A stretch of 64,000 bases of DNA from Malacoraja senta (Eukaryota), in assembly GCA_038087875.1 (NCBI GenBank), contig CM075994.1, positions 992,001 through 1,056,000 on the forward strand. Reading direction: 5' to 3'. This document shows, in pieces, positions 17,222 to 17,429 of this stretch. Positions within the stretch are counted from its first letter, which is position 1. Every line of letters starts with the position of its first letter. Made by a program: the position numbers and the translations under genes. The notes beneath the pieces were generated by a model. It made no database searches, had not been told where the DNA came from, and saw only the letters and a program-made list of their open reading frames with translations.

Positions 17222-17328
17222 GATGAGAAAGATGCGATCGTTCAATTTCAGGTCTCTTCAGTGCTTATGGGCTTAGCCACTGTCTTCTTGTAGCCAAGTC
17301 TTCTGCAGTTTCCGTACTATGGCTGGGG

Positions 17329-17337
17329 CTTTTTATA
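17329..17337 (-). promoter_or_regulatory. TATA box (TATAAAAAG) of the C-x11-C gene
   Basis: Consensus TATA on the minus strand. It predicts a TSS near 17305-17310 and a 5'UTR of about 85 nt with no upstream ATG. Confidence 0.7.
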
Positions 17338-17352
17338 TTGTTTCCACACCCT

Positions 17353-17364
17353 GAAATTGAAACT
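17353..17364. promoter_or_regulatory. ISRE/IRF site (GAAATTGAAACT; AGTTTCAATTTC on the minus strand)
   Basis: Exact match to the AGTTTCNNTTTC consensus, 15 nt upstream of the TATA box. Confidence 0.65.
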
Positions 17365-17390
17365 CAGTCAAGTGCCTAGATGTGAACCAG

Positions 17391-17409
17391 TGACGTCTAG
17401 TTTCGTTTT
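17391..17409. promoter_or_regulatory. CRE-like site (TGACGTCT) next to a second IRF-like site (AGTTTCGTTTT)
   Basis: One mismatch from TGACGTCA, directly followed by an AANNGAAA-type IRF motif in the same proximal promoter. Confidence 0.35.
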
Positions 17410-17429
17410 ATGCCTTCAAAACCAACCTG

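Follow-up and report, generated by a model that had tools for sequence, protein, structure and literature searches.

A spliced gene is encoded on the minus strand of the window, the 64,000-nucleotide stretch of Malacoraja senta DNA analysed here. An AG-to-GT open-exon scan gave ten candidates, four of which turned out to be exons of this gene. Three exons with a C-x11-C cysteine pair align as a repeat, and the one protein picked out of five candidates with a profile of these exons was LOC144602725 of another skate, Rhinoraja longicauda (E 1.5e-9). When this homolog was mapped back by tblastn, one further exon was found and others were confirmed. The gene model has seven open coding exons with AG/GT ends, all ending in phase 1, and 74 of the 127 columns aligned between them and the homolog are identical (58%). 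The last exon or exons, with the fourth repeat and the stop, lie beyond the left end of the window, and the last helix of the homolog found no match in 1-6660. Seven open phase-1 exons together with a RefSeq homolog with three isoforms indicate that the gene is real.

All seven exons are on the minus strand. The coding part of exon 1 (17221-17182) contains the ATG and the hydrophobic core of a signal peptide, with 9 of 13 residues identical to the homolog, and is followed by the phase-1 donor GTGAGT. Exon 2 (17102-17052, 51 nt) has 11 of 16 residues identical. The three C-x11-C repeats are encoded by exon 3 (13543-13484, 60 nt), exon 4 (9048-8971, 78 nt; 19/25 identical) and exon 6 (6753-6667, 87 nt; identical in 13 of 28 columns). 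Exon 5 (7432-7400, 33 nt; 6 of 14 columns) is a linker, and exon 7 (183-145, 39 nt; 9/12 identical) is an acidic linker. Exon 3 is the weakest match (7/19 identical) and was missed by tblastn; it was placed by its splice sites, its cysteine pair and these 7 of 19 identities, and it scores best against repeat 1 of the homolog. The six acceptors of the gene have 9-14 pyrimidines in 15 positions, and none of their tracts contains a further AG. Exactly the 17 residues encoded by exon 2 are missing from the homolog's isoform X3, which supports the exon boundaries, assuming that the RefSeq isoforms reflect transcripts. If exon 2 is skipped, the region where the signal peptide is probably cleaved would be lost together with the beginning of helix 1.

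The homolog (XP_078271987-9) shares with the product of this gene the exon-sized blocks, the signal peptide and the C-x11-C repeats. It differs most in exon 3, and exon 6 of the present gene has 8 additional residues. This protein is itself uncharacterised and, given the 58% identity, could be a paralog; the same value would fit fast evolution as in immune genes. It has one hydrophobic stretch, at the N-terminus, with a net charge of -13 after it, and eight cysteines with the spacing 11-7-11-30-11-21-11. The N-terminal hydrophobic stretch suggests that the product is probably secreted. In two single-sequence models of moderate confidence (pLDDT 69-72) the protein forms four long helices with one C-x11-C pair each. 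The product is probably about 150 residues long, with a signal peptide and four such helices. From the cysteine spacing, the helices may form an up-down bundle that four disulfides close, possibly as a ring with pairing 1-8, 2-3, 4-5 and 6-7.

Searches for relatives gave little beyond the homolog. Single-exon searches gave no match, Pfam has no family for the homolog, the best PDB sequence match had E 0.63, and profile matches were at E 1.1 or worse. The best ESM Atlas value was 0.77, and Foldseek with the two models returned no match at E 0.001 or better in the PDB or viral libraries. The best VIA matches, with Z 8.1 (rmsd 7.9, 122 aligned) and 8.5 (rmsd 8.1, 130 aligned), were both to a GPCR and are typical of generic helices. 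A scan with the homolog confirmed none of 163 metagenome-contig candidates and none of 14 viral ones, in collections that are not expected to hold skate DNA. In the literature searched, mostly outside subscription journals, no paper on LOC144602725 and no elasmobranch catalogue of interferon-stimulated genes (ISGs) was found; nothing relevant was found on the CX11C pattern.

Two known classes of secreted immune protein can be set aside. Chemokines carry a CC, CXC or CX3C motif near the N-terminus; here the closest cysteines are 7 residues apart and the homolog has no Pfam family, and a chemokine is ruled out. Class II cytokine genes have phase-0 introns. An interferon is ruled out, and a class II helical cytokine disfavoured, by the seven coding exons with at least one more outside the window, the eight cysteines of the homolog and the phase-1 exon ends. 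Cartilaginous fish interferon genes are described with four exons and the class II family with five (PMC5332411), and type I interferons with two or four cysteines (PMC6640115).

The putative promoter of the gene lies in a 408-bp non-repeat island (17021-17428) that is single copy in the window, with a GC content of 0.41 and a low CpG level (observed/expected 0.48). The island is bounded upstream by a remnant (17429-17861, plus) that matches the 3' end of the window's long LINE reading frame, presumably of CR1 type. A compact cluster of elements, read on the minus strand, spans 82 bp and lies 116 bp upstream of the first ATG. The TATA box TATAAAAAG is at 17337-17329 (minus), and the element GGGTGTGGAAA of the initial annotation is at 17351-17341 (minus). 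The latter is overlapped by CCACACCCT on the plus strand (17344-17352), a KLF/Sp-type motif that reads GGGTGTGG on the minus strand and that we take to be a CACCC/GT box. The interferon-stimulated response element (ISRE) AGTTTCAATTTC at 17364-17353 (minus) is a perfect match to the consensus AGTTTCN2TTTCN, which is given, as is the GAS consensus, in PMC5985295. Farther upstream, on the plus strand, a CRE/ATF-like octamer TGACGTCT (17391-17398), with 7 of 8 positions of the CRE consensus, abuts a distal IRF/ISRE-like site AGTTTCGTTTTA (17399-17410) with one mismatch to the ISRE consensus. The ISRE, GAS and IRF-E patterns came from papers, and the CRE, CACCC, kappaB and TATA patterns are those in general use.

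Toward the gene on the minus strand, the order is thus distal IRF-like site, CRE-like site, ISRE, GGGTGTGG and TATA box. With the transcript start set by rule 30 bp after the TATA box, the predicted 5'UTR would be 17222-17307 (minus) and the elements would stand at about -103, -91, -57, -45 and -30, with the ATG at +87; the ISRE would cover about -57 to -46 and the distal site about -103 to -92. The two IRF sites lie upstream from the TATA box, by 16 and 62 bp, and in opposite orientation. According to PMC5985295, ISREs in proximal promoters occur in single or multiple copies and in either orientation. All of the motifs that the initial annotation had placed here (the TATA box, the ISRE, the CRE-like and GGGTGTGGAAA elements and the second IRF-like site) are present where it placed them, its ISRE is indeed a full match to the published consensus, and the cluster does precede the exon encoding the signal peptide in a real spliced gene. 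Its remark that repeats begin about 20 bp further upstream also agrees with the repeat start at 17429, and it is plausible that the stretch is the whole proximal promoter, which would still allow enhancers elsewhere. A recurrence of a variant in the 5'UTR had been claimed as well. The element, GAAATTGAAC at 17249-17240 (minus), matches exactly at that place and is weak: it has more than two mismatches to the ISRE consensus, is ruled out as an ISRE and is to be dropped as evidence.

Other control elements were looked for in 17200-17430. No kappaB site was found within one mismatch of a kappaB consensus, and no GAS site TTCCNGGAA within one mismatch, which rules out a composite ISRE/GAS promoter. 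A kappaB reading of GGGTGTGGAAA is ruled out; GGGTGTGG is taken as a CACCC/GT box. Apart from the ISRE itself, nothing beside the IRF sites matched EICE or AP-1, and Rfam gave no match anywhere in the window. A non-repeat island in intron 2 (15005-15200) has a GAS-like site (15118-15126) and a kappaB-like site (15050-15041), each with one mismatch, and is a possible intronic enhancer.

In two DNA runs of a single study, the contigs are identical in every letter across the cluster; these runs may be the assembly's own source and are not independent of it. Their alignments to the region consisted mostly of repeats and contained no usable splice joints. Single-base differences in the same contigs are at 17168, 17214, 13476 and 13486, with none listed in 17217-17450. 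Position 17214 falls within the third codon of exon 1, and 13486 within the final complete codon of exon 3. These differences are too few to serve as a test for constraint.

Downstream of the TATA box, the first ATG is at 17221; it is the start codon of the signal-peptide exon, and the predicted 5'UTR has no upstream ATG. Between TATA box and ATG there is no acceptor-like AG, with at most 7 pyrimidines in the 15 positions before any of 12 AGs. From this arrangement we infer that the exon with this ATG is the first exon of the gene. It should be mentioned that the ISRE runs directly into AG/G and therefore also resembles a splice acceptor. Transcription could then start at an upstream non-coding exon, with the ISRE as the tract of an acceptor at 17352-17351 and an internal exon from 17350. 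The minus strand does read TTTC-AG/G there, with 10 of 15 pyrimidines, near the 9-14 of the gene's own acceptors. However, such sites are common (88 YAG/G on the minus strand of the window, 1.4 per kb), the tract holds an extra AG, unlike those of all six gene acceptors, and the second IRF site (purine-rich on this strand), the CRE-like site and the spacing of the TATA box would be left unexplained. We regard an internal exon as very unlikely.

The cluster was compared with chance in several ways. Two matches to the ISRE consensus occur in the 64 kb where 0.25 are expected, and 3 of 100 whole-window shuffles reach two, which makes the count by itself no more than marginal. A LINE remnant holds the second copy (plus, 26618). 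A local test used the 91 bp between the TATA box and the first repeat, with 20,000 dinucleotide shuffles. A perfect ISRE arose in 13 of these, and a perfect ISRE with a second site at one mismatch or less in none of the 20,000; both the stretch and the test were picked after the motif had been seen, so that the resulting p-values are optimistic. TGACGTC appeared in 209 of 20,000 shuffles (1%), and the window contains no second copy of the CRE-like word. Ten sites within one mismatch of the ISRE consensus exist in the window, and the two of the promoter are the only pair within 100 bp. Individually, some of the elements are common: there are 4 exact CCACACCC matches and 103 TATA-like matches. 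Of the latter, only that of this promoter has a near-consensus site in the 91 bp upstream. It is the position and clustering, not the ISRE count, that carry weight, and by these tests, all designed with the motif already known, the cluster exceeds chance.

These counts bear on a further explanation, in which the TATA promoter is real and the IRF-like words are incidental or a relic, with control located elsewhere or lost to the upstream repeats. Single ISREs do arise by chance, as the one in the LINE remnant illustrates, and repeats with another copy in the window cover 99% of the upstream 8 kb (17429-25500). The pair of sites argues against it, since it was never reached in the 20,000 shuffles and has no counterpart in the 64 kb, beside a TATA box or elsewhere. 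We consider this explanation improbable. An origin of the promoter from a recent repeat is ruled out, there being no second copy in the window; an older, decayed repeat could still be its source. In the upstream repeats, four copies of one LINE 3' fragment (17430, 18255, 20434 and 22286, within 17430-22800) run in the same direction, which suggests a local tandem duplication.

We have compared the arrangement with known promoter kinds. The promoters of IFIT, ISG15, MX1 and OAS type likewise have a consensus ISRE and a further site in the 200 bp upstream from the TATA box, as described for the IFIT genes (PMC3688568, PMC5985295). In contrast to IFIT-type promoters, which usually carry their sites in one direction (PMC3688568), the two sites here have opposite orientation, there is no GAS site, and the product, known here from sequence alone, is a putatively secreted orphan protein rather than an intracellular effector. 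The CCL5/RANTES promoter is similar in having a CRE and an ISRE within about 200 bp upstream of a gene for a secreted protein; its ISRE is described as the dominant virus-response element, acting through IRF3, and it also has an NF-IL6 site and two kappaB sites (PMC5004318). Here, no kappaB site is found within one mismatch, and the protein does not have the chemokine cysteine pattern. The IFN-beta enhanceosome (PRDIV-III-I-II) also places an ATF/CRE-type site beside an IRF site upstream of the TATA box (PMC7411613). However, the present cluster has no PRDII kappaB site and no four overlapping IRF-Es, and the gene is not an interferon. With the IRF-E definition of PMC7411613, the two AANNGAAA matches in 17150-17450 are separate and on opposite strands. 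The absence of any kappaB or GAS match, and of a run of four overlapping AANNGAAA elements, rules out an IFN-beta-type enhanceosome. A search of metagenome contigs, which are not expected to hold skate DNA, gave no match to the ISRE-CACCC-TATA pattern.

We propose that the cluster is probably a real proximal promoter of the ISRE/TATA type, switched on by ISGF3 or IRFs. TBP/TFIID would bind at the TATA box and set a transcript start near 17307 on the minus strand. Upon virus sensing or interferon signalling, ISGF3 (STAT1-STAT2-IRF9) or IRF1/3/7 would occupy both sites, the ISRE near -50 and the other near -100, and by analogy with mammalian and teleost promoters the two sites would give stronger induction than one. 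The CACCC box and the CRE-like site may, less certainly, set the basal level or the tissue. Several published observations are consistent with this proposal. More than one ISRE gives stronger induction, and a full consensus ISRE with a second site near the start is enriched in strongly interferon-induced genes (PMC3783172). Zebrafish IFIT promoters with an ISRE respond to interferon and poly(I:C), and the ISRE-less IFIT5A does not (PMC3688568). Cartilaginous fish have interferons, their receptors and most of the IRF/JAK/STAT set (PMC5332411).

The same sites could be real IRF sites in constitutive, cell-type-specific use with little induction, through IRF2, IRF8 or IRF4 in leukocytes, or through IRF6 with a KLF factor in epithelium. 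A CACCC box and TATA box in a low-CpG island fit a tissue-specific gene. IRF2 is reported to serve basal transcription through an ISRE and a GC box in TRIM14 (PMC6668374), and ISRE and IRF-E use are described as not separable by sequence (PMC3783172). Against constitutive use stand the full ISRE with a near-start second site, typical of strongly interferon-induced genes (PMC3783172), and the lack of an EICE or AP-1 match beside the sites besides the ISRE. In our estimate constitutive use is unlikely.

With an interferon-inducible promoter as the preferred reading, the protein is a candidate interferon-induced defence factor. Of the initial annotation's suggestion that the gene may encode a secreted, inducible factor, the first part gains from the N-terminal hydrophobic stretch, by which the protein looks secreted; the remainder we infer from the promoter. 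More tentatively, and with some doubt on our part, the protein may be the first member of an undescribed family of interferon- or virus-induced secreted proteins in cartilaginous fish, as a cytokine-like messenger or an extracellular antiviral effector. In this view duplicated exons would have supplied its four C-x11-C helices, and it would fall outside the known cytokine classes.

Among jawed vertebrates this promoter layout is the usual one and in itself no surprise; the novelty sits in the orphan protein that it points to. About 40% of zebrafish protein-coding ISGs (137/337) are reported without a human orthologue (bioRxiv 693333), so that orphan ISGs are to be expected. The same source places cartilaginous fish as the earliest-branching lineage with type I interferon genes. 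The promoter is the sole hint to the function of a predicted secreted four-helix protein outside any Pfam family, and it offers a 110-bp fragment on which interferon control in a cartilaginous fish can be tested directly. Confirmed induction would make the protein a candidate new immune mediator.

Some other features of the window were noted. A stonustoxin-like gene on the minus strand (59887-55029) matches the Pfam families MACPF_SNTX, Stonustoxin_helical, Thioredoxin_11, two fn3 and an AIG1-type GTPase; its first coding exon, from 59887, is short, and an in-frame stop at 56096-56094 interrupts a long frame. Between its first two coding exons is an IRF-type word, GAAAGTGAAA (58844-58835, minus), which may be there by chance given 8 matches to GAAANNGAAA in the window. 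A near-complete LINE on the plus strand (44295-48127), probably a recent copy, has a 313-residue frame with a GDSL/esterase-like domain, followed by a 984-residue frame that is presumably endonuclease/reverse-transcriptase-like. Two non-repeat stretches rich in GC and CpG, 38000-38600 and 62800-63400, may be promoters or old mobile elements.
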